Positions 1 through 56,476 of a stretch of 64,000 nt of DNA are shown here, one piece after another. The stretch is from positions 682,001 to 746,000 of the forward strand of contig NC_089432.1 in assembly GCF_026210795.1 (NCBI RefSeq), written 5' to 3'. The translations under genes were made by a program, and so were the position numbers. The stretch is from Rhizophagus irregularis (taxonomy: Eukaryota). Within the stretch, counting starts at the first letter, position 1; each line of letters begins with the position of its first letter. The notes beneath the pieces were generated by a model that had not been told where the DNA came from, searched no databases, and saw only the letters and a program-made list of their open reading frames with translations.

Positions 1-1376
1 TGGTCGTTCTGAAATATCAATTTGTCATCAGCGATCAGTTTGCCACAATTAGAAAAATATTCTTTTCCAATTCCGGTTCATAGTACTAAACATACTGCCG
101 GTTCAACTAGCTCAGCTGATAATTCACCGTTAAAATACGCTTCATTTTCTAAATTTGTGGTACCGCCTCCCAAGAAGTTTCGTAAGGCACCCCCTCCTTC
201 AACAACCTTTTCAGCCGACGCGTTCGATTCTTTTACGGACAAGTTAGCTCGTCAATTTACTGATTACTATAAATTTATGAAAAAACATGACCTACGGCGT
301 ACTGTCTTGGCGCGCCAACGTGAAGCACGTATCGCTTCATCCACGCAACACCCACCTATAGCGTCTGAGACATGTGTCTCAACTCCAGATTTTTACGCAG
401 ACATCTCGTCATCAGATGGTTACGAATCCGCGCGTTCGTCCATAAGCACTGCCAGCACTTACTGTACATACCTGAAGGCTTTAAAATAAATAGTTTTACT
501 TCGGAGGATGCTGAAGTTAAAGAATTCTCTCATATTCCTATCACTCATTTACCGAACCTTTTTGAATCAAGTACTCCTATTTTGGAGGATTCTAAAGAGG
601 AAGTTGCACCAATGATACCTGGTTCAACTTACAACCACAACATTCCTATAACTTACATACCTGACCTTTTTAATACAAAAGACTCCACATCAAAGGGACT
701 CAAAGCATCGAATACTGCTTTAGATTATGATACTGCGATCATGCCTGACGCATTTAGCGATATCGCCTCCTTATCGGAGGGTTACGAAACCGCCGCCTCC
801 TCGTTGGACGAATTACCGCCAACATTCCAATTATTCACATTCCCGATCTCTTTCAATAGGGTGCCTTCCTGGTGGAGGGCATTTATGAAATTTTTGTTTT
901 TTTTTATTATTATTTTTTTACTATTCTACTAGTTTTATTATTCATTGACCCATAGTAGTATAGATTTTTCTTAATTTTGTAATTGGGTTATTAACATCAT
1001 TTAAATTGTCCGTATTTAGCATCTCAGATGCATATTCTACTTTTTTCCTTTTTTATTATTTTGAACAATTAAAAATAGTGTGAACCATTCTGCCTATGAC
1101 AGTATTTACAGGCAGCAACTCGAATGAGTTGAAAGAAAAATACGGGTCATTTTCTTTTTTTTTGGCTGTTAGAACCTTTCACGACTTAGGTTATGTCTGG
1201 GTTGTTCTTTTAAATAATCAGGCAGGACAACTTCTTCAGGCTCCTCCCGAGAGGTTGGGTTTTATCATTAATTTAGGATTAATTAGGCCTTTAGTTTATG
1301 TTTATCCTTATGTAACGTTATACTTCAGTCGTGTCTATATTTTAAAAATAAAAATAAAATAAAAATAAAAATAAAA
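1..1376 (+). mobile_element. Probable 3' end of a retroposed element (GC-richer degenerate ORF, T-rich 3' region, TAAAAA-repeat tail)
   Basis: GC content is visibly above the flanks. Two overlapping ORFs (22-489, 372-932) look like one frameshifted ORF. The segment ends in TAAAAA/TAAAA repeats at ~1344-1376, the same tail type as the LINEs at 48-56 kb. No RT or endonuclease motif is visible and the 5' part lies outside the window. Confidence 0.4.
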
Positions 1377-12809: not shown

Positions 12810-15547
12810 TTATTTAGCTTCCTCTACCCACTGATCACCCTTCTTATGAAGAACCCTACTCAACACATATGCACGTTTCCCCTGAAAAACAATTCCGCAC
12901 TCAACCAATTTTGTAGTTCTTATCCCGGTGCGGTATTTTTTCTCCTTTATCTGATCTAATGCCTCTTTAGCTTTTTTTTCCATATCTATGTTTTTCTTTT
13001 TCTTATCGTATATTTTGAAATCCATAAGTATTGATACCTCATAAATTACTTTTTCTGTATTTGGTACTATTCTAACATCAAAACGTCCTTCACCAGCTTC
13101 TCTGTTTGAAGACAGCTCATAATTATGATATCGTACTGGTGAAAGTATGCCAACCATGAGCATATGATAATTAGTTTCCGCTAAGTTATCTGGAACATCA
13201 AAATATGAAAGAGATTCCATTATCATTATTGGAAGTTCTTTCTCAAATTTCGTGAGGTTGCATTGCAAAAGCATCTCCAACATTGTATCTGGATTAAATG
13301 AAATTCTTCTATTTAACCATCCCTTCCATTCTGTGAAAACCTCTGTGTTTGGAATGTATAGATGCCCTTCTTTGTTCATGGTAAGATAACCTCCATAGTA
13401 AAGTAATGTCCATAGTGTATCATTTGCACATTGAGATAATAAATTGTAATCGATATCTCCCATAATCTCCACATTGACCGCGTCTTTTCGGAGCAACATT
13501 ATGGTTTTGTTTCTAAAGTCTTCATTTGAGTGCCAAAGTAATTGTTTGATAGTTGCGGTGCCTCCTGTTATATTTCAAGAAACCATGTTATGAAACAATT
13601 TCTAACAGGGCCAATTAATGCATGCCTTACCTGTATCTACCCAGTGTGCCTCCAAACGATTCGTGCTAATGAATTTATTGATTGACCAAGGATTGTATAA
13701 AGGTATTGTACCATTCGAAGCCATATAACCGTCATACCAATCTTTGACCTTCTTAGCTTGAGACTTTTTGTAATGTTGAAGAATAATGGAAACCTCATCT
13801 TCAGTGAAGCCAAATTTGTCAGCATACTCTTGATCGTGCATTGGGAATACTTGCATGTTGTTAAGCCCTGACAAATATCCTGATTTGGCAACACGGGACA
13901 CACCGACAAGAAGAGCTTTTTCCAAATTGTCGTCATTGCTCTGTATTTGTCAATCCAATCATTTGTTAGGTTATCGCTTGCATGATCTTACGAAGACAGT
14001 CTAAAATATGTAATAAGTGCTTACCTTGAGGAGCGCTCCAAATAGAGAAGCAAAAAAACCACGAGCTTCTTCATAATATTGATACCGATAGGCAATGTCA
14101 AGAGGATGGTCATATTCATCAATTAGGACGATACACTCTTTTCCATGATAATCTTTCAGATACCTAGAAAGGTCAACGAGAACATCATCCATGCGTTTAC
14201 AATTCTCATCTTCAGAACGTATTTGACTGAAACGTGTCTTCTCATAAGGGTCAAGTTTATCATAAACATAATTATGATTTTTGTACAGCATTGCAAACAT
14301 CCCAAATAGCTTGATTTTCATCTTTGACCAAGTTTCACAGCCATCGAAATTCTGCAAAGGAAACGTAAAAAAAAGGCAGATCAACAGAACAATTCACAGT
14401 AGCAGTCCGGATGCAAATAATGCCATACCTTCAAAGAGAGAAAGATGACTGGGTACTTGCAAAAATGTGTGTCAAAAAGGCTCTGTTTCTCCATAATTTT
14501 CATGTCTACGAACAATTCACGGCGGTATTTCTTATTGTCTGGGTGGATGGGAATCGAAAAAAAATCTCTAAGCATCGTGAGGTTAATTGTTTTTCCAAAC
14601 CGCCTTGGCCGAACGATAAGAGAGACTTTCGAATTGCACTCAATGAACTCGGAGATCAGAGATGTCTTATCAAGAAAAGTGCAACCTCCGTTCACAATTT
14701 TGCTGAAGCTGTCCCAGCCAATGGGTATGCTTTTTCCTGCGAAGAGAGTAGCAGTACCATCTAACATAATCGAAAAAGAGATTAGTCTCTATGAAAAGAA
14801 AAAAGGGAAATAAACAAAGAATAGTGCACATACATTTTATCATCTTTTGTCTTTTGCACGAAGGTGACCACGGTGGCACTAGAAAAAATGATTAGAATGA
14901 TTTTGTAAATTACAGAGAATACTAAGGGAGTATATGCCTTCTTTATTCTGCGAATATTTACCTTCCTCTTCTGTACGTGCTCTCTTCAAAGGAGGTTCTT
15001 TGGCTGAATATAGGGATAAAAGAAAAAAGAAGAAAGGAAATGCAAGTTAGTCGAAAAAGTTGTACAAGATATCCTCAAAGATAAGTATTTTCCGCCATAA
15101 CTTTTCTAATAAAACAGTATTTATACCAAACCAGTACTTACCCGGTTTCTCTATTATGATGTGAATGTGTTTATCGGGAGGATCCTCAACAAAAATGTTT
15201 TTAATATAGTCATCCGGGTTTAATGGCACACCTCCGAGTTGCTTTTTAATATCAATCCCTGCGTGAACATTTGGTACGTCTTGTAATTTTGTTAGTTTAT
15301 CGTCCTTGTCTTCTGGCTTTGTGGAAATGGACACCTTCCATAACCTTAACTCGTTGGCTATAAAGGTGTACCTGTAATATTCGCATAACAGTTTTTTGAA
15401 ATGATCAATATTGAGTTTTTCGAAACTGATTTTCTCTCGTCCTATCTTTTTTCCTTCAGTCCTACTAATATTAATCGTGAAACGGTCCTCGATACTGTCG
15501 CCTAAAACAAGACAAAAAATAATCATTATGTCGTTTAAGTTAGACAT
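12810..15547 (-). CDS. Crinkler (CRN)-type protein: CRN ubiquitin-like N-terminus + AAA-ATPase-like NTPase + PD-(D/E)XK nuclease; ~7 exons (approx. 15547-15142, 15003-14962, 14878-14834, 14760-14429, 14351-14025, 13940-13631, 13564-12810)
   Basis: CRN N-terminal motifs IFCLVLGD, LRLWKV and HIHIII. Basic linkers PPLKRAR and KRQK. Walker A RPRRFGKT, Walker B IVLIDEYD, and SGLNN, FGFTEDEV, WYDGY, YNPWS motifs. Nuclease NREAGEGRFD...MDFK...ALDQIKEKKY. GT-AG introns join the ORF pieces. Confidence 0.88.
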
Positions 15548-16804
15548 GTTTATGCGCTATTTACAGGTATATATACAAAAATATGGTTGTTAAAGGTGAC
15601 CAACGTTGATAAACGATGAATATGTTTCGAAAGAGTATAATAATGTTGCGTAACACTGAGTAAAATTCGCACGTCTGAAATGTGTGTCAGGTTGACGGCG
15701 CAATGTGGTGCAGTAATTTCAAAAAATCTTTAACTTTTTTATGTAATGCTTTCAAATTTACACATTATGTGTATTTTAATCTGTTTTACAAAATTCACTT
15801 ATAAATGGAAGGAGGTTTTGGAAGTAGATTTGACTTTAGTATATAAAAACCGATTTTATCGTTTTTGCCGATCATTTCCAAAATTGGATTTGTCAAAAAA
15901 AAGGTTTTTGTTAAATAACTCGAAAATGCACCACCGTAGGATCTTGTGTAAATATCGAAATGTCATTTTTTTGTTATGTGGTAAATAAATAATGAGGATG
16001 ATCTAGGTTAAGTTGCGCACGATGTATTGTAAATGGTTATTTATGTGGGTAGCCTAAACATAACGCCCACGTGATTGCAGTGTTTTTAAATATTAGATAA
16101 CAGTTTTTAATTGATTTAATAATTAAATGGTGTGAACCCATTTTTTATTATCTAAATCACTTAACAAGAAATGATTCATGCCATTTCTTTATTAAACCTA
16201 TTGTTTGTTATCAAATTACTAATCAAAAATGGGTTCGCACCATATTTATTATCAAATGGCTAATAATTTAATAATATAACAGTGCGAACTCTTAAAACTT
16301 CAAAGATTTTTAAAATTAATTTTAACCCTTACAATTTAAGGGATAGTTAAATAAAGTATAATGCTTAAAAGCTTACTAACTTGTACTTAGTAATTATCCT
16401 AGTTTTTCTAATAAAGATTAAAATATACATTTTATAATTTGTTAAATAAAATTTATTATATCAAATAAATTAATATGCAATACATTTTATTTCAGTGATG
16501 TTTGTCATTAATGTCAAAATATTAGCTGTAAAATTTAACTAATATACTTTGTTATATTCTATTTAAAGATTTGAATAAATGTTTTATGTAATATTTTATA
16601 ACTTACTATAAAGTTGAGTTACTAAACATTTTATGAAGTATTCTAGGAGTAGATACTAGTAAATTTCCAACAAGTATGTATCAATTTTAATTTTTTCAAT
16701 AAAAAGTTCATGAAACGAACGATTTTCTTTTTATTTAATACTTAAAAAATTTTCCAAAGTATGTTGAATAAAGCAAAAATGATATTATTAAGAAAAGTAA
16801 ATAA

Positions 16805-44969: not shown

Positions 44970-46706
44970 TGATAAAAAACGTTATTTTAACGTTACTTTA
45001 ATGTTTTTTTAAATTAACTATGATAAAAAAAATGGTATATAACGTTAAATAACGTTATTTTAACATGTTTTATAATAAAAAATGTTATATGACGTTAAAT
45101 AACGTTATTTTAACATGTTTTATAATAAAAAATGGTATATGACGTTAAATAACGTTATTTTAACATGTTTTATAATAAAAAATGGTATATGACGTTAAAT
45201 AACGTTATTTTAACATGTTTTATAATAAAAGAACGTTATATGACGTTAAATAACGTTATTTTAACATGTTTTATAATAAAAAATGGTATATGACGTTAAA
45301 TAACGTTATTTTAACATGTTTTATAATAAAAAATGGTATATGACGTTAAATAACGTTATTTTAACATGTTTTATAATAAAAAATGTTATATGACGTTAAA
45401 TAACGTTATTTTAACATGTTTTATAATAAAAAAATGTTATATGACGTTAAATAACGTTATTTAACATGTTTTACAATAAAAAAATGGTATATGACGTTAA
45501 ATAACGTTATTTAACATTATTTTAACATGTCTTATAATAAAAAAACGTTATATAACGTTATATAACGTTATTTTAACATGTTTTATAATAAAAGAACGTT
45601 ATATAACGTTATATAACGTTATTTTAACATGTTTTATAATAAAAGAACGTTATATAACGTTATATAACGTTATTTTAACATGTTTTATAATAAAAGAACG
45701 TTATATAACGTTATATAACGTTATTTTAACATGTTTTATAATAAAAGAACGTTATATAACGTTATATAACGTTATTTTAACATGTTTTATAATAAAAGAA
45801 CGTTATATAACGTTATATAACGTTATTTTAACATGTTTTATAATAAAAGAACGTTATATAACGTTATAATAAAAGAACGTTATATAACATTATTTAACGT
45901 TGTTTTAACATGTTTTATAATAAAAAATGGTATATGACGTTAAATAACGTTATTTTAACATGTTTTATAATAAAAAAATGTTATATGACGTTAAATAACG
46001 TTATTTAACATTATTTTAACATGTCTTATAATAAAAAAACGTTATTCTAACATGTCTTATAATGGAAAAACGTTATATAACGTTATTTTAACGTTATTTA
46101 ACATTTCTTATGATAAAAAAACGTTATTTTAACGTTATTTAACATTTCTTATGATAAAAAAACGTTATTTTAACGTTATTTAACATTTCTTATGATAAAA
46201 AAACGTTATTTTAACGTTATTTTAACATTTCTTATGATAAAAAATGTTATATAACGTTATTTTAACATGTTTTATAATAAAAGAACGTTATATAACGTTA
46301 TTTAACGTTATTTTAACATGTTTTATAATAAAAGAACGTTATATAACGTTATATAACGTTATTTTAACATGTTTTATAATAAAAGAACGTTATATAACGT
46401 TATATAACGTTATTTTAACATGTTTTATAATAAAAGAACGTTATATAACGTTATATAACGTTATTTTAACATGTTTTATAATAAAAAATGTTATATGACG
46501 TTATTTTAACATGTTTTATAATAAAAGAACGTTATATAACATTATTTAACGTTGTTTTAACATGTTTTATAATAAAAAATGGTATATGACGTTAAATAAC
46601 GTTATTTTAACATGTTTTATAATAAAAAATGTAATATGACGTTAAATAACGTTATTTTAACATGTTTTATAATAAAAAATGTTATATGACGTTATTTAAC
46701 GTTATT
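44970..46706. repeat. AT-rich satellite array of 50/51/41-bp units built from ~10-bp TAACGTTA-type subunits
   Basis: 50-bp unit AACGTTATTTTAACATGTTTTATAATAAAAAATGGTATATGACGTTAAAT, a 51-bp variant containing GAACGTTATATAACGTTATAT, and a 41-bp variant at ~46081-46240. Roughly 35 units. Confidence 0.95.
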
Positions 46707-47343
46707 TTTCCAATATCTACTGCGCCACCCAAAGTGCAATACAAGATCTTAGAGAATGCGAAATGAAAATAACAGCTAATACATAAAATATTTAAATGAA
46801 CATGAATTTTCAATCACTAAATATTACTTAAGGGTTTTATATTTAAGAATCCTTGGATAAATTAGTTTTTAACTGTAAATAAAAATATTGGCAAAATTAA
46901 ATTTTTGTTTTGTGCAAGAACAAAAATCGATCGACATAATATTAAAAAATGTGATTTATTCGTGATCTATCAAATTAACATTCATCTTTAGTAGCACAGT
47001 TAAATTCAGTGCAAAAAGTTAACATTATGATTGACTGTCTATGTACTGTACATGTACATGTACAGTACATGTTCATGTTAATGTACTGTACATGTACATG
47101 TATAAGTACATAAGTTATATAAGATTTGATGGACCTTTTTTTACCAAAAAGGAAATTTTTTTCAATTTCATGGCAATTCTGCATGTGGGTAAATATCAAA
47201 TTAAGAAACGATGTACATATATTCGAATTAATAAATTTGATAAATTTATAAAATGATTGACAAATGATTGACATAAAAATAACTACTTTTGTAAAAAACG
47301 CCCAACAAAAGATTATCTCTGTGTTAAAATAAATTAATAATAC

Positions 47344-48400
47344 GATGATAACTCTCTCTCCTTTCTCTCACTTTTCTTAATGGAAATAATATTTCACTCA
47401 TTTTAAAATACTCGTATTTAAAGAAGTTGCCCTAAATACCTGGTTAAAACACCAACTTGGTTTCCGCTACTTGTCTCTATTGGGTCCAGCGGCACTTGTT
47501 CATATGTTTTGAACGACTTTGGTTATAAGGTTGAAGATTCCAAGCTGGAAGGAAGAAATTTCCATTTCGCTCAGTGGTGAAAGTTCGCTTTCTTAATAAT
47601 AAGGGGTTGTTCCTGGTGATAGTTTGGTGAAGTTTCCCTCTTTACCTAGGTTTTTACTCCTTTGGGTTGGTTTTCCTAGGGTTATGAATTTTTCTTATTT
47701 TTTTGGTGAATTTTTCTCGTCTTTCTTTTTTGCCTTCTGCTTTTTGGAGTTTTTCTGGGGGGTAGGGGGGTATCCCAAAATTGATCGACATCAGGTGGTT
47801 TGTAGATCTTTTCTTTTGAGAGAGTTGGGTGTAATTTAAGGGGGGTGCAGATCTTGGTGATCAGTTTTTGGTCAGGTGAGGTCAAGGTGGTACATATTTG
47901 GACTATCATGGGTTTTTTTCTGCAGTTTAGTTTAGATTGGAGGGATCGTTCGAAATGAGGTGGGTGTCCTTTTGGGGATTGCACGACACTAAAAAGTTCC
48001 CCTTTAGTTTACTCTTAGGTAGTTTATTAACTCTGGTAATATAGTCACTTGGAGAATTTATTTTTATCGACCAGTGTGGGGGGATTTTTCCAACCAGGGG
48101 CTGGCGGTTCAGTTTGATAATCTGCGGGGTACGGGCTTCAACTTACCAAAACTTAGGTTTACCTAGGCGAGAGTATGGGAGGCAGTGGCGTTATCTGGGT
48201 TTTTGTGTCGTGGGGTCTAATTTTAGTATCTCACATTATACCTTCTTCCTGTTAATTGCCCACCGGTTTGAGTAGATTATTTTCGCGTGTAGTTTAGTTA
48301 GTATTTTTGTCAATTTTGACTTATATGTAATTTTCTACTTATAATCGCGTCCATGTTAGGTTTCTAACTGGAACCCATTAATAAAAATAAAAATAAAAAT
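47344..48400 (+). mobile_element. ~1.06-kb retroposed element without recognisable coding capacity (SINE-like passenger, or 3' end of a second LINE family)
   Basis: Bounded by AAATTAATAATAC at 47331-47343 and 48401-48413. TAAAAA-repeat tail at ~48379-48400. Shares 3' motif blocks with the LINE 3' UTR. G/T-rich top strand. Confidence 0.8.
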
Positions 48401-48413
48401 AAATTAATAATAC

Positions 48414-49070
48414 TGATCCTAACGTGTTTACTTTTATTGACATTATTAAAGGAATTATACCTATGTCACTTTCGGATTTGTTGAATTCTTGGACTACAAA
48501 GAAAAATGTTGTTGTTGTTTTGATTCAAATGAGACAGTTTATTTTCAATGAAATATTTGAAGAGGTTTGGATTCCACGGTGTTCGCACCTGAAGGAATTT
48601 GAACGTTCGTTAGGGTTGACTAAAAAGAAAAAATTAAAGTTTAAAAGTGTTCGTTCATTACCTAATAATAATAGTAGTAATAATAATATTATTCATTATG
48701 ATTCTTTAGATAGTGTTAGAAATTACATTTATTTTGGCAAAAATATAATAGAATTTTATACTAATCTTACTTCGTAGCGCCATTGTAGATTTTAGTAGTT
48801 GATTTATATAATTTTATAGGGTCAATTTTACTTTCTTCTGCAGGGCGGGCTTCAACTTACCAAGTTTTGGCTAGTGTATGGGAGGTAGTGGGTTAATTAA
48901 AGAAATGGTTTTTAGGTGTAGTTGGTTATATCTTTAATAGTTTCGTATTTAATTGCCCCACCGTCGAAGTAGATTCTTCTGATAGTTTAGTTCATTTTTT
49001 TATTTTACTTTTTCATTTTTGATATGTTTATAAAATTTGTTTTCGCTAACTATTACTGTTTAATAAAAAT
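48414..49070 (+). mobile_element. Heavily 5'-truncated LINE copy (ORF2 C-terminus + 3' UTR)
   Basis: Aligns with 55680-56335. Encodes DPNVFTFIDIIKG...FYTNLTS* (to 48777), followed by a short tail and AAATTAATAATAC at 49071-49083. Confidence 0.95.
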
Positions 49071-49083
49071 AAATTAATAATAC

Positions 49084-50574
49084 GGACTCTTTCAATACAA
49101 CACACAATTACCTATCGTTCAAATTGGTAAACAAGGGGCAAAGGTATCATTTTTGGATAAAGAAAAATTTGACCAATTTCTTAAAATGGAAATTGTTATT
49201 CAGGAGCAAAAAGAAGGTGATTCAGGTGTAGTGTTTAATGTGAAACTTCAACCTACCCCATTGAAGCCTGAGAAGGTGCCTACTACAAATGATAAGAATA
49301 GTGATATGTCACAAAATTCCAATAGTTGTACAATTCAAGTAATCGACATTCCTGCGTATAGGCAGGTACGCGAAATTCGTGAGTCCTTTGAAGATCTTGG
49401 TGAAATTGAGAAAATTTATACACGAGGTGCTGGTCTTTACCAAGTTGCTTTCATTACGTATAAAGATGCGAATTCTATTGATTATTTCAATGAACAATGG
49501 AGCTATCATATTAATAAAGACATAGTTAGAGTTTTACCCCTGTTATTGAGCAAGGAGGAACGCGAGAAAAGGAAGCAATTCTCGTTAAGATTATCAGGTT
49601 TACATTATCAAACTAGTGGTTATGATCTTAAGGAAGTTATGACACAATGTAAAGGGAAAACTTGTTTCATCCCAGCTGTTATGATTCGTGGTAAATATCA
49701 AAGGTGTCGATATGCTTACATTCATTTTTCTTCACAAGATGATTTGGTGGCAGCCAGACAAATGAAAATTGAATTCAAAAAGGGTAACGCAGGTACTCGA
49801 CAATTATACTGGAGTAAAGAGGAAGATCACATTTGTAATATTTGCGGTAATCCCACTCATATGGCCAAAGACTGTACCAACAAAGATATTAACAAATCTC
49901 AATCTAAACGTTTTGTTAGTGGCGCTGATAATTGGAAAAATTTGAAAAAGTCGTATGCGGATGCGACTAAATCTAAACAAAAGCCCAGAAATAGTTCTAA
50001 ATCTAATAATAATATTCCATCTGGATCATGTGATCTAGGAAAAGCTCGCAGCAATCATGATAATGATGATGACGATAGTGAAGATTTCAATAATCATCCG
50101 ATGTTTTTAAAATTCAAGGAACAAATTATTAGCACTATAAGAAAGGTGGAAGACAAAATGCTTAAAATGGAATCACTCATTGTTGACACTGGCAAGCAAA
50201 TTAGTGAAGTTGTTACTGCACAACAAGCGCTTAAATGTGATAAAGCGCATCCGGTCCCAACTAGTATGAAAAAGAAAAATCAACAATCTGTTTCTGGTGC
50301 AGAAGTTAAAGCAGCGAAAAAACGCTGTAAAAGTGACTCTGAATCAAGTGAAGATGAAGATGAACTAGCAAATAAATCCGTTCTTCAATCACAACAATTT
50401 CAGAAATCTGATCAAAATATCCAAAGCATTGTTGCACAACAAAAACAAATACAAGAAAACCACAAGGAAACTAAATCCTTACTCTCATCACTTTACAACA
50501 TGTTAGCTGGCGGCCCTTCAGCTTCATCATTATTGGGGGATAATGATGAAGTTTTTGATGATTCTGTCATATAA
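49084..50574 (+). pseudogene. LINE ORF1 of copy A (RRM-like domains, CCHC zinc knuckle, coiled coil), N-terminally truncated
   Basis: IQVIDIP...VAFITY and LRLSGL...YAYIHF RRM-like segments; CNICGNPTHMAKDC knuckle. Lacks the N-terminal ~220 aa seen in copy B. Confidence 0.85.
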
Positions 50575-53500: not shown

Positions 53501-56044
53501 GGTCACAAGTTATGGCTTTATCAAAAACACAAACAGAATCTTTAATTATTCCTTTTAGAAGGATGTTTAAAAACAAACTAAAATTCGCTCGTTCAGCGCC
53601 TAACGCTATACTCGATAATCCTTATATATATGGATATAGAGATTTTTACGACAATCAACTTCAAGCCAAAATTACGGATTTTTGTATTCAACTTAACGAC
53701 AATGGTCTCTTAGGAAAAGTTACTGAAATTCGTTTAAAATCCTTACAGGATCAATTATGGACATCGCGCCCATTAATAGAAAAACTTCCTTATAATCGTG
53801 TTCCGCACACACGAAAAAATAATTATATTCTTAATATGCTTTTATTATGCTATGATAATAATATTTCGTTAGAATATTTAGATGATAATATTTTTCCATC
53901 AATTAAAGGAGGTAAAATTCCTTTGGAAGACGTGGTAGATAATGCATATTATTCTAAACATAGGAAGAGACTTCGTGAAAAGAATATCTTATTTTTAGAT
54001 CAAATTATTTCAGGTGATAAATTTCGTTTATTGTTATGGAAAGAAATACTTATTAAGGCTTATATTCCTATTTTTTCACAACGGAAAGAAACTAAATGGT
54101 ATTCAGATATTAGAAATTTAATTACTTCAGATGGTGTTCATTTGAATCATAATATAACACAATTATTTGGCGCTCGTGTTGATAATGTGGAAGAGACTCG
54201 ATCATATGATATTAATAAAAAAAATAGATCTTTAGTTGCATGTTATAATTCACAATTTAACTCTGTAGTCATTGGAAAGATTCAAAGAATAGATGAAACA
54301 AAACGACCTGTTATTAAACATTTTCATATTGATATGTCTCGATGTACCGATACACATACTTATATATATCAATGTATGGAATATGGATGTGCTGCTAATG
54401 CATCATTATCAACTCGATCACCTTGTACGTTTTCTGCTGACTGGGAATGTTTAGTACCATTATTAACAGATTCTCAATTTGCGCCTAGTCAACTTATAAA
54501 CTTAATAGAATTTAATATTTTTGACATTTTTGATTTTGCAAAAAAGAAATATGATATTATAAATCAAGCGTTAACGCAAAATCACGTGATTTCTCCTTCT
54601 TCACAATTACAAGATAATATAATTTTAGATTTATTAGATTCTTCAACTTCAAGAAATGACTTGTTAACTATACAACGAACATTAGCTCCTTTTGACAATA
54701 ACAATTATTATATTTTTGAATTTTACACTGATGGATCTTTAATCGAATTAGGTACTGAGCAGTGTAGTATCAGTTGCGCCTTCGCTCAGATTAGTGATTT
54801 GTTTGATATACCTCATGTCGAATTTTATTCTACTATTGATAAATAGCCTTCTGCATATAGAGGAGAATTGTTAGCTGTTCTTTTAGCATTAAGCGTTGTT
54901 CCAAAAAATAGTAAAGTTAGAATTAACACAGACTCGCTTAACGTGATTACTCAATTTGAAAAATTGAAGAAGTCAAGATTTTCTCAAACCTCACGTGAAT
55001 ACTTTAAGGCTAATAATAATTTCTTATGGGCTATTTTATGTAGAATCATATTAACATTGAACTTGCATGTGGAAATGTTTAAGGTTGTTGCTCATGGTGA
55101 TGATATGGGTAATAATTATGTAGATAATTTGGCGAAAATTGCACATACTGATCAAGATCGCTATATAGTTTTACGACAGAACGCTTGTATGATGAAAGTT
55201 CTTCCTTGTTGGAATGGAATTATTATTGAAAATAAGCTGCACTCATTTTTGAAAAATATATGCAACTACAAAGGTTTAGAAAAATTTATTAATTTGAATA
55301 GAAATTCTAAATATCGCACGCTAGAAGTCGACTGGACATTCACATTTAGTTGTTTAAATTGTGACATAAATAACAATGAAACTTCTGTTTCTTCTTCTAA
55401 AACGAAAGCTCAAAAAGTTCACTTGTTAATTGAAGAAATTCCTACAATTGAACAGATGAAGAAATCATTGTTTGACTTATATGATGGTTGGATGTGCCCT
55501 ATATGTGGTCTACAAGATGAAACCTTTAATCATGTCTGGACGTGTAGTGGTCATTATGATATTATTAACAACATTCGAGATAAGACTATTAATCATCTCT
55601 TAACTTGGATATTAGAATATAATGATAATATACAAGATTTTAATGCTCTTATGGCACTTGATATATGGGATATATCTTATGATCCTAACGTGTTTACTTT
55701 TATTGACTTGATTAAAGGTATTATACCTATGTCACTTTCAGAATTATTGAATTCCTGGACTACAAAGAAAAATGTTGTTGATGTTTTGGTTCAAATGAGA
55801 CAGTTTATTTTTAATGCTATATTCGAAGAAGTTTGGATTCCAAGGTGTTCGCATTTGAAGGAATTTGAACATTCTATAGGATTAACTAAAAAGAAAAAAA
55901 TTAGAATTCAAAAGCGTTCGTTCATTACCTAGTAATAATAGTAGTTATACTAATAATATTCATTATGATTCTTTAGATAGTGTTAGGAATTACATTTATT
56001 TTGGTAAAAATATAATAGAATTTTATACTAATCTTACTTCGTAG
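50584..56044 (+). pseudogene. LINE ORF2 of copy A: AP endonuclease - reverse transcriptase - RNase H - CCHC finger; disrupted
   Basis: APE motifs TTNIR, GLAET, MGDFN, SRIDYIW, TDH. RT motifs KATGPSG, RPITLLE, QDMGKAYD, GIDQG, YMDD. RNase H motifs YTDGS, ELLA, NTDS, AH...GNNYVD. C-terminal CPICGLQDETFNHVWTC. In-frame TAG at 54844-54846 (TGG in copy B) and an extra A at ~55895-55899. Confidence 0.93.
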
Positions 56045-56476
56045 CGCCATCGTAGATTTTAGTAGTTTGATTTATATAATTTTATAGGGTCAATTTTACT
56101 TTCTTCTGCAGGGCGGGCTTCAACTTACCAAGTTTCGGCTAGTGTATGGGAGGTAGTGGGTTAATTAAAGAAATGGTTTTTAGGTGTAGTTGGTTATATC
56201 TTTAATAGTTTCGTATTTAATTGCCCCACCGTCAAAGTAGATTCTTCTGATAGTTTAGTTCATTTTTTTATTTTACTTCTTCATTTCTGATATGTTTATA
56301 AAATTTGTATTCGCTAACTATTACTGTTCAATAAAAATAAAAATAAAAATAAAAATAAAAAATAAAAATAAATTAATAATACTAAAATGATTATCTGGGT
56401 GTTAATTCACATAAAAATATGGCAAATTGTTAAAATCGCTTAAAATCCGCAGTAAATATTTAACAATTTATAGAAA

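Follow-up and report, generated by a model that had tools for sequence, protein, structure and literature searches.

A multicopy, non-coding retroposon with LINE-type ends and a foreign body, probably copied in trans into a conserved LINE target site of Rhizophagus irregularis

In this study we analysed a stretch of 64,000 nucleotides from the root-symbiotic fungus Rhizophagus irregularis (NCBI RefSeq assembly GCF_026210795.1, contig NC_089432.1, positions 682,001 to 746,000 of the forward strand), which is called the window throughout and to which all coordinates refer. It holds an element, here named A, that we consider with good confidence to be a multicopy, non-coding, full-length non-autonomous retroposon of 1.03 kb, which joins LINE-type ends to a foreign body of 0.75 kb, is likely made as one transcript and is likely copied in trans by the LINE family of the window, or by a close sister of it, into a conserved LINE site. 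A does not qualify as a classical Pol III SINE, and it is probably not a long 3' UTR either.

The window is A+T-rich eukaryotic DNA in which Sel1, kinase and TPR genes are present. From position 47326 onwards its plus strand reads 18-mer, A (47344-48400), 18-mer, B, 18-mer, L1, 18-mer and L2, with the flank lying before 47326, and B, L1 and L2 being LINE copies. The 13-mer AAATTAATAATAC occurs exactly at 47331, 48401, 49071 and 56370; with one mismatch allowed, 2.64 matches are expected and four or more were obtained in 32 of 100 shuffles, so that this count alone is not above chance. All four matches widen to the 18-mer AAAATAAATTAATAATAC, starting at 47326, 48396, 49066 and 56365, for which a base-frequency model expects 0.0003 occurrences per strand, and every copy marks an element junction (4/4). 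We interpret them as four plus-strand copies of a target site duplication (47326..47343, 48396..48413, 49066..49083 and 56365..56382), the first of which starts at a TT/AAAA step, in agreement with the published nicking consensus of LINEs (PMC2848041). The junction repeat spans 13-18 nt, as its first letters overlap the tail, and its right edge is identical at all four junctions, though the sequences behind it differ; the position of the second cut would therefore depend on distance or on sequence lying upstream. A is thus framed, as originally proposed, by the junction sequence of the LINEs, the 18-mer being present without mismatch to its left and right as well as at every LINE junction, and the LINE-type TAAAAA tail that had been ascribed to it is found as a (TAAAAA)n tract on the plus strand (48380..48395) which runs into the duplication.

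The three LINE copies, all on the plus strand, differ in completeness. B (48414..49065) is a 5'-truncated, 657-nt LINE 3' end comprising the ORF2 C-terminus, the 3' UTR and a short tail, and it is 94% identical to 55680-56338. L1 (49084..56364) contains a shortened ORF1 and an ORF2 with APE endonuclease, RT and RNase H domains, a stop at 54844 and a frameshift near 55888, while L2 (56383..64000), the longest copy, carries stops in ORF1 and ORF2 and is cut by the window end. Both long copies thus carry stops and the window holds no intact LINE of this family. In one of its two readings, the original prediction had named the ORF2 of the window as the mobilising enzyme; the partner may instead belong to a sister family that has the specificity in common. 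ORF1 gave weak RRM and zinc-knuckle matches, the best solved relative found with the profile is human L1 ORF2p (E 3e-38), with R2 at 1e-23, and ORF2 relatives at 91-95% identity are named Rhizophagus irregularis. As the three copies are 88-91% identical over a common stretch of 277 nt, they represent separate insertions. The protein P0007 from another strain spans two head-to-tail LINE pieces, which is consistent with stacking at other places. The start of L2, GATTATCTggGTGTTAA (56383-56405), is a diverged copy of the sequence upstream of the target (47312-47327) and was possibly carried over from a source element residing in another target copy.

The sequence in front of this series is a conserved non-coding target flank (46938..47325, plus strand), which ends in GATTATCTCTGTGTT, includes an ACATGT tandem repeat (47041-47111, plus strand) and matches, in three colinear blocks, the upstream flank of the metagenome contig L001. 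This contig contains an intact LINE (ORF1 of 655 aa, ORF2 of 1796 aa, 42% ORF2 identity, same tail), which sits directly after TTATCTGTGTGTT/AAAATA of the homologous non-coding flank. The 400 nt before the L001 LINE are colinear with 46938-47331 of the window, the ACATGT repeat included, and the flank blocks reached local scores of 75 and 47, with none of 200 shuffles as high for either. Since a related LINE with 42% ORF2 identity lies at the homologous point of a homologous flank, the target is conserved, and the four window junctions together with that of L001 characterise these elements as sequence-specific APE-LINEs with Tx1-like behaviour; the visible duplication is about 6 nt in L001 versus 18 in the window. 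The site specificity of A itself is seen at one full junction and one partial junction, in which the 18-mer is not displayed. Record 12 of sequencing run X7 shows a different upstream end, then flank pieces and then a LINE 3' piece; judged from the lengths, as the row of the joint is dropped at the repeat, it would be a target paralogue with the 18-mer and a LINE fragment and without A. Searches for tRNA genes and Rfam families in the window, L001, L002, L003 and L005 gave no identity for the target, and no full second copy of it is present within the window. Minisatellite arrays lie upstream of the target both in the window (45026-46708, 34 copies of a 51-bp unit) and in L001 (1-780, 1310-1690 and 2000-2460), where the units are unrelated to those of the window. 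ACATGT palindromes also occur just behind the tails of two related LINEs (L002:6930-6975 and L003:7325-7336), which may be chance.

A proper (47350..48379, plus strand) is a T/G-rich, non-coding sequence of 1030 nt with 24 runs of T4 or more. According to the original prediction it aligns with the LINEs only in short 3' blocks; this stands for the 5' part, but the common 3' region proved to be larger. BLASTN of A against the LINE copies recovered one 73-nt block and the tail as the only common sequence, whereas alignment to the LINE 3' UTR yielded several colinear blocks over about 200 nt (48121-48322), with a local score of 94 versus 22.6 +/- 3.4 for shuffles, as high in 0 of 200. The blocks of A are nearer to L1 than to L001 or L002, against whose UTRs the 3' domain scored no better than shuffled sequence (its score was reached by 102 and 37 of 200 shuffles, respectively), and a pattern built from the two best common 3' blocks had no match in viral, metagenome and prokaryote collections. 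The 5' 730 nt of A align neither to the LINE 3' UTR, the LINE 5' end or the LINE body nor, more broadly, to L1, L2 or any of 80 related loci; an unseen sister LINE may still match this part. In agreement with the earlier statement that the segment has no convincing ORF, no trace of ORF1 or ORF2 was detected in A: tblastn with 120 ORF2 relatives gave a best E of 0.002 on the minus strand, compared with 39 matches for segment B as positive control, and profiles of ORF1 and ORF2 scored nothing in six frames. Three ORFs were absent from the protein collection by exact look-up, and a Pfam search produced nothing below E 0.1.

Several dispersed copies of A could be recovered through its longest antisense frame, a spurious ORF of 75 aa (47685..47909, minus strand) that is called as a hypothetical protein in public assemblies. 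This frame led to five protein clusters among six candidates, the 12 members of which include eight different gene models on seven contigs of one assembly, named DAOM 181602=DAOM 197198, one gene model from strain A5 and three contigs of 981, 1038 and 1176 nt, which corresponds to unit length. A is therefore not single-copy, the count being a lower bound as it is seen through gene calls alone, with flanks not included. The members map to 47480-47984 and switch reading frame against each other, and because near-identical copies are frameshifted in this way, no ORF is kept in A. A protein-coding role was accordingly rejected, given the frameshifted relatives of the antisense ORF and the empty Pfam search and exact look-up; public annotations nevertheless call spurious antisense proteins on A. 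The two outcomes that the original prediction had set against itself, a single-copy segment and a segment forming an internal part of an unrelated element, were both not observed. Furthermore, A was found in 20 runs from 14 studies, 0-12 differences from the window were counted in its contigs over about 1 kb, and in several runs it is represented by one unbranched contig. Such breadth and uniformity would also be expected if A were a host lncRNA, possibly derived from a LINE by domestication and serving a separate function, that is produced from one or a few master loci and is retrocopied occasionally owing to its LINE 3' domain. We regard this explanation as unlikely, as there are at least eight near-identical dispersed copies of A, both of its ends carry LINE-type motifs and it lacks a stable whole-length fold as well as an Rfam match, while a young age explains the high identity equally well.

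In record 13 of run X7, position 47350 is joined to a different upstream sequence. Two features of the target flank recur there, namely the ACATGT repeat and a 26-nt landmark, with a spacing that, as estimated from piece lengths, is about that of the window. This flank is diverged and mostly unaligned at 80%, whereas A differs at five places in 622 nt, and A is therefore younger than the divergence of the flanks. The same comparison bears on the idea that A was inserted only once or twice and that its copies spread passively within duplications of a target-bearing repeat: although the target flank has paralogues and adjoins minisatellite arrays in both the window and L001, which would suit a unit of DNA that is mobile or repeated, the contrast between diverged flank and near-identical A leaves this course of events very little probability.

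At its 5' end, A begins with the motif AACTCTYTC (47350..47358, plus strand), followed by a pyrimidine tract, which together form a candidate internal initiator. The motif was defined after inspection of A and the related loci. The ORF1 start could be placed in 14 of the 80 related loci, representing nine families, and AACTCTYTC lies within 200 nt upstream of it in seven of these 14 loci and six of the nine families, being absent from three families and from L2; seven of nine plus-strand matches in 311,524 nt of related loci fall into the 200 nt before ORF1. Three loci of one family (L034, L035 and L037) diverge just upstream of the motif. On the plus strand of the window there are two matches, one of them at 47350, six letters after the duplication. 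These six additional letters (47344..47349, plus strand) are probably outside the element, as the homology in X7 record 13 ends at 47350, and the element originally drawn as 47344..48400 therefore probably begins at 47350. L1 starts with GGACTCTTTC (49084-49093), in which the larger part of the 5' motif immediately precedes sequence from within ORF1; L1 may have been shortened internally instead of being simply truncated.

The contigs of A in eight sequencing runs, chosen by their A content and with depths that are not expression levels, all reach the tail. In five of the eight runs they end without a loose end at 47358, 47354, 47358, 47354 and 47353, 3-8 nt from the motif; in two others they end further in, at 47397 and 47422, and in X7 the match ends at 47350 and is followed by 479 other letters. 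The contigs show neither strand, start nor level of RNA, and RNA is on record for X15 and X17 only, the other six runs being guessed RNA or unlabelled, so that the ends at 47353-47358 give a weak hint at a transcript start. The upstream flank is without cover in seven of eight runs and the L1 ORFs are almost without cover in the four runs compared, a lack that carries no weight on its own.

A second sequence type, A2, which has a different upstream part, joins A within 47942..48002 (plus strand) in three of the eight runs (X17 record 11, X7 records 14-15 and X2 record 3), with a 28-nt duplication. The X17 contig measures 738 nt, of which 643 upstream letters are unmatched, and the 30 letters visible upstream of the joint have a stop in all three frames. 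A2 could represent another passenger, or it could be the end of the sister LINE from which the 3' module of A came. Contig breaks at 47943/48003 and depth steps that could have been taken for a second RNA as abundant as A are mostly explained by a variant bubble at 47973. A further contig, X7 record 17, is about 85% like the LINE 3' UTR over window positions 48763-48883 and has foreign upstream letters; it might represent yet another passenger, the third, or a sister LINE in decay.

These variants are relevant to the second reading offered by the original prediction, the long 3' UTR of a diverged sister LINE, under which A would be what is left after 5' truncation of an autonomous element whose 3' UTR exceeds 1 kb. 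Sister families do exist in R. irregularis (P0013, 74% identity), A is T/G-rich like a LINE UTR along most of its length, and the 643 unseen upstream letters of A2 could be counted in its favour. Yet 3' UTRs in this clade measure 140-286 nt in the seven families with a visible tail, compared with 1030 nt for A; A begins with the 5' motif of the clade; its 5' end is common to two contexts and to five of eight runs; three contigs of unit length exist; and the 30 letters before the A2 joint carry stops in every frame. We therefore assign a small chance to this reading and favour the non-autonomous passenger on the grounds of copy number, 5' motif and length.

Regarding the class of RNA to which A belongs, the original term SINE-like is appropriate in the loose sense of a non-autonomous passenger, but the tests for a Pol III SINE failed. 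A has no tRNA, 5S or 7SL head, ARAGORN reported 0 tRNA genes, simple A and B box patterns had no match in A, and the 24 oligo(T) runs together with the lack of boxes make transcription by Pol III unlikely; on these sequence features, A is likely transcribed by RNA polymerase II. An Rfam search found no match within A up to E 10, and telomerase RNA, a ribozyme or another known RNA was rejected on this search. The 5' windows of A fold no better than shuffles and gave no Rfam match, which argues against an HDV-like 5' ribozyme, and no stable fold was obtained for the whole length (z 0.07). When folded singly, the 3' regions of A, B and L1 are predicted to adopt a similar two-helix shape, and the 3' domain (48121..48322, plus strand) is a candidate recognition element for ORF2p; its fold z-scores are weak (-1.7 for A and -0.6 for L1), and hardly any variation occurs in helix 1, which lacks covariation among the three sequences, whose automatic alignment for the 3' structure put the last block in the wrong place. 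With its duplication and simple-repeat tail, lack of coding capacity and several dispersed copies, A has several properties of a non-autonomous LINE passenger, and its 3' homology to a LINE places it in the stringent type, although the exact partner family could be another. A SIDE, which would consist of only 5' and 3' parts of the partner LINE, does not describe A, as the 730-nt 5' part is foreign to L1, L2 and the 80 loci.

For such a passenger the following mechanism can be proposed. RNA polymerase II would start at the AACTCTYTC motif and pyrimidine tract, and ORF2p would bind the 3' domain of the transcript. The APE endonuclease would nick the bottom strand at GTGTT/AAAA, after which the (UAAAAA)n tail could pair with the freed T-rich end and prime reverse transcription. 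A second nick 18 nt further on would create the duplication and rebuild the site upstream of the new copy. Because the site would be rebuilt upstream of each new copy, elements would stack head to tail, and A, which lies nearest to the flank, would be the latest arrival.

Elements of this kind are known from other organisms, and one of the closest by description is Sadhu of Arabidopsis, which is about 900 bp long, non-coding and of low copy number, with duplications of 7-18 bp that start with adenines after T (PMC2848041). Sadhu shares with A the lack of coding capacity and of Pol III boxes as well as a 5' motif with a pyrimidine patch, and its transcription sets in at, or close to, the element start (PMC2848041). 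However, Sadhu ends in poly(A) and A in (TAAAAA)n, and the passages of PMC2848041 consulted give neither a 3' domain common with a named LINE nor a specific target, both of which A has. The R2 and R2/R1 SIDEs of Drosophila resemble A in being non-autonomous, not Pol III-driven and equipped with 5' and 3' signals of a LINE, and they insert, as A would, at the specific site of the partner with its duplication (PMC3414825). They are internal deletions with a 5' ribozyme and a 28S rDNA target (PMC3414825), whereas A has a 0.75-kb body without LINE similarity and, at the 5' end, only the motif of 9 nt; it lacks a ribozyme match, and its target is not rRNA. In crocodilians, SINEU-3 with its Tx1 partners is, like Tx1L in Tx1D, a passenger with strong target preference, there inside another repeat; tandem SINEU-3 copies likewise sandwich a duplication and internal oligo(T) argues against Pol III (PMC4494074). 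SINEU elements have an snRNA head and are below 500 bp (PMC4494074), whereas A is without snRNA similarity and has a target in which no transposon was recognised. EhSINE1 of Entamoeba histolytica can be likened to A in being transcribed and polyadenylated, in having no ORF and a 3' overlap with its partner LINE, and in that no small-RNA precursor was found, but it is 500-600 bp long with internal repeats, overlaps by about 70 bp and inserts randomly at T-rich sites (PMC2996970). Among fungi, the SINE-like Eg-R1 of Blumeria is comparable in its Pol II transcription, internal poly(T) and target duplications, but it codes for the ROPIP1 peptide, its copies in the genome carry no A tail and no site specificity is described in the sections consulted (10.1101/242271). 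Target-specific LINEs with passengers have been described mainly in animals (PMC4494074; PMC3414825), and in the literature searched, including the accessible parts of PMC11075540, PMC8647823 and PMC11952901, none was found for R. irregularis or other AM fungi. SINE and L1-Tx1 families are reported for R. irregularis in PMC11075540, with SINE counts among the expressed families, and its passages and supplementary tables covered here give no SINE structure or target; A may already be contained, unnamed, in that repeat library. The kind of element is thus known, and what is new is the fungal setting, the foreign body and the conserved non-coding target.

A passenger with a foreign body indicates what in an RNA probably suffices for mobilisation in trans, namely the 3' domain of about 200 nt and the tail. 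Through A, these cis requirements can be tested directly, and a path towards site-directed insertion is suggested for AM fungi, for which we know of no stable transformation. In a wider and tentative reading, which we consider possible but rather doubtful, AM fungi carry a clade of sequence-specific LINEs, each with a different multicopy target (the conserved non-coding site here, the DLGLC codons of kinases in a sister family), and A is a currently mobile, strictly site-specific passenger out of a modular set in which different heads are attached to one 3' module. If this were true, nature would provide a system by which foreign cargo of about 1 kb is written into a single fixed site of a fungus.

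Further elements were noted among the related loci and elsewhere in the window. The LINE family of L008, L012, L013 and L014 and the L046 family (67% identity) lie antisense at the DLGLC codons of protein-kinase paralogues in five loci (L008:1111, L012:6327, L013:87/114/7826, L014:580 and L046:285). In L013, CATAATCCTAARTCAC is found on both sides, and the 3' flank in L014 is not kinase sequence; these are likely kinase-gene-specific LINEs. Window positions 1-1376 hold the 3' end of another element comprising two fragments of ORFs, a 3' region rich in T and a (TAAAA/TAAAAA)n tail, which is without the 18-mer and had no tblastn match to the 120 ORF2 relatives. Inverted ATCCC/GGGAT arrays at 1689-1801 and 2867-2977, about 1.1 kb apart, resemble the ends of a non-autonomous DNA transposon. 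Finally, the minus strand at 12810-15556 carries a PD-(D/E)XK nuclease ORF and an ORF with a Crinkler N-terminal domain, which are typical of this fungal group.
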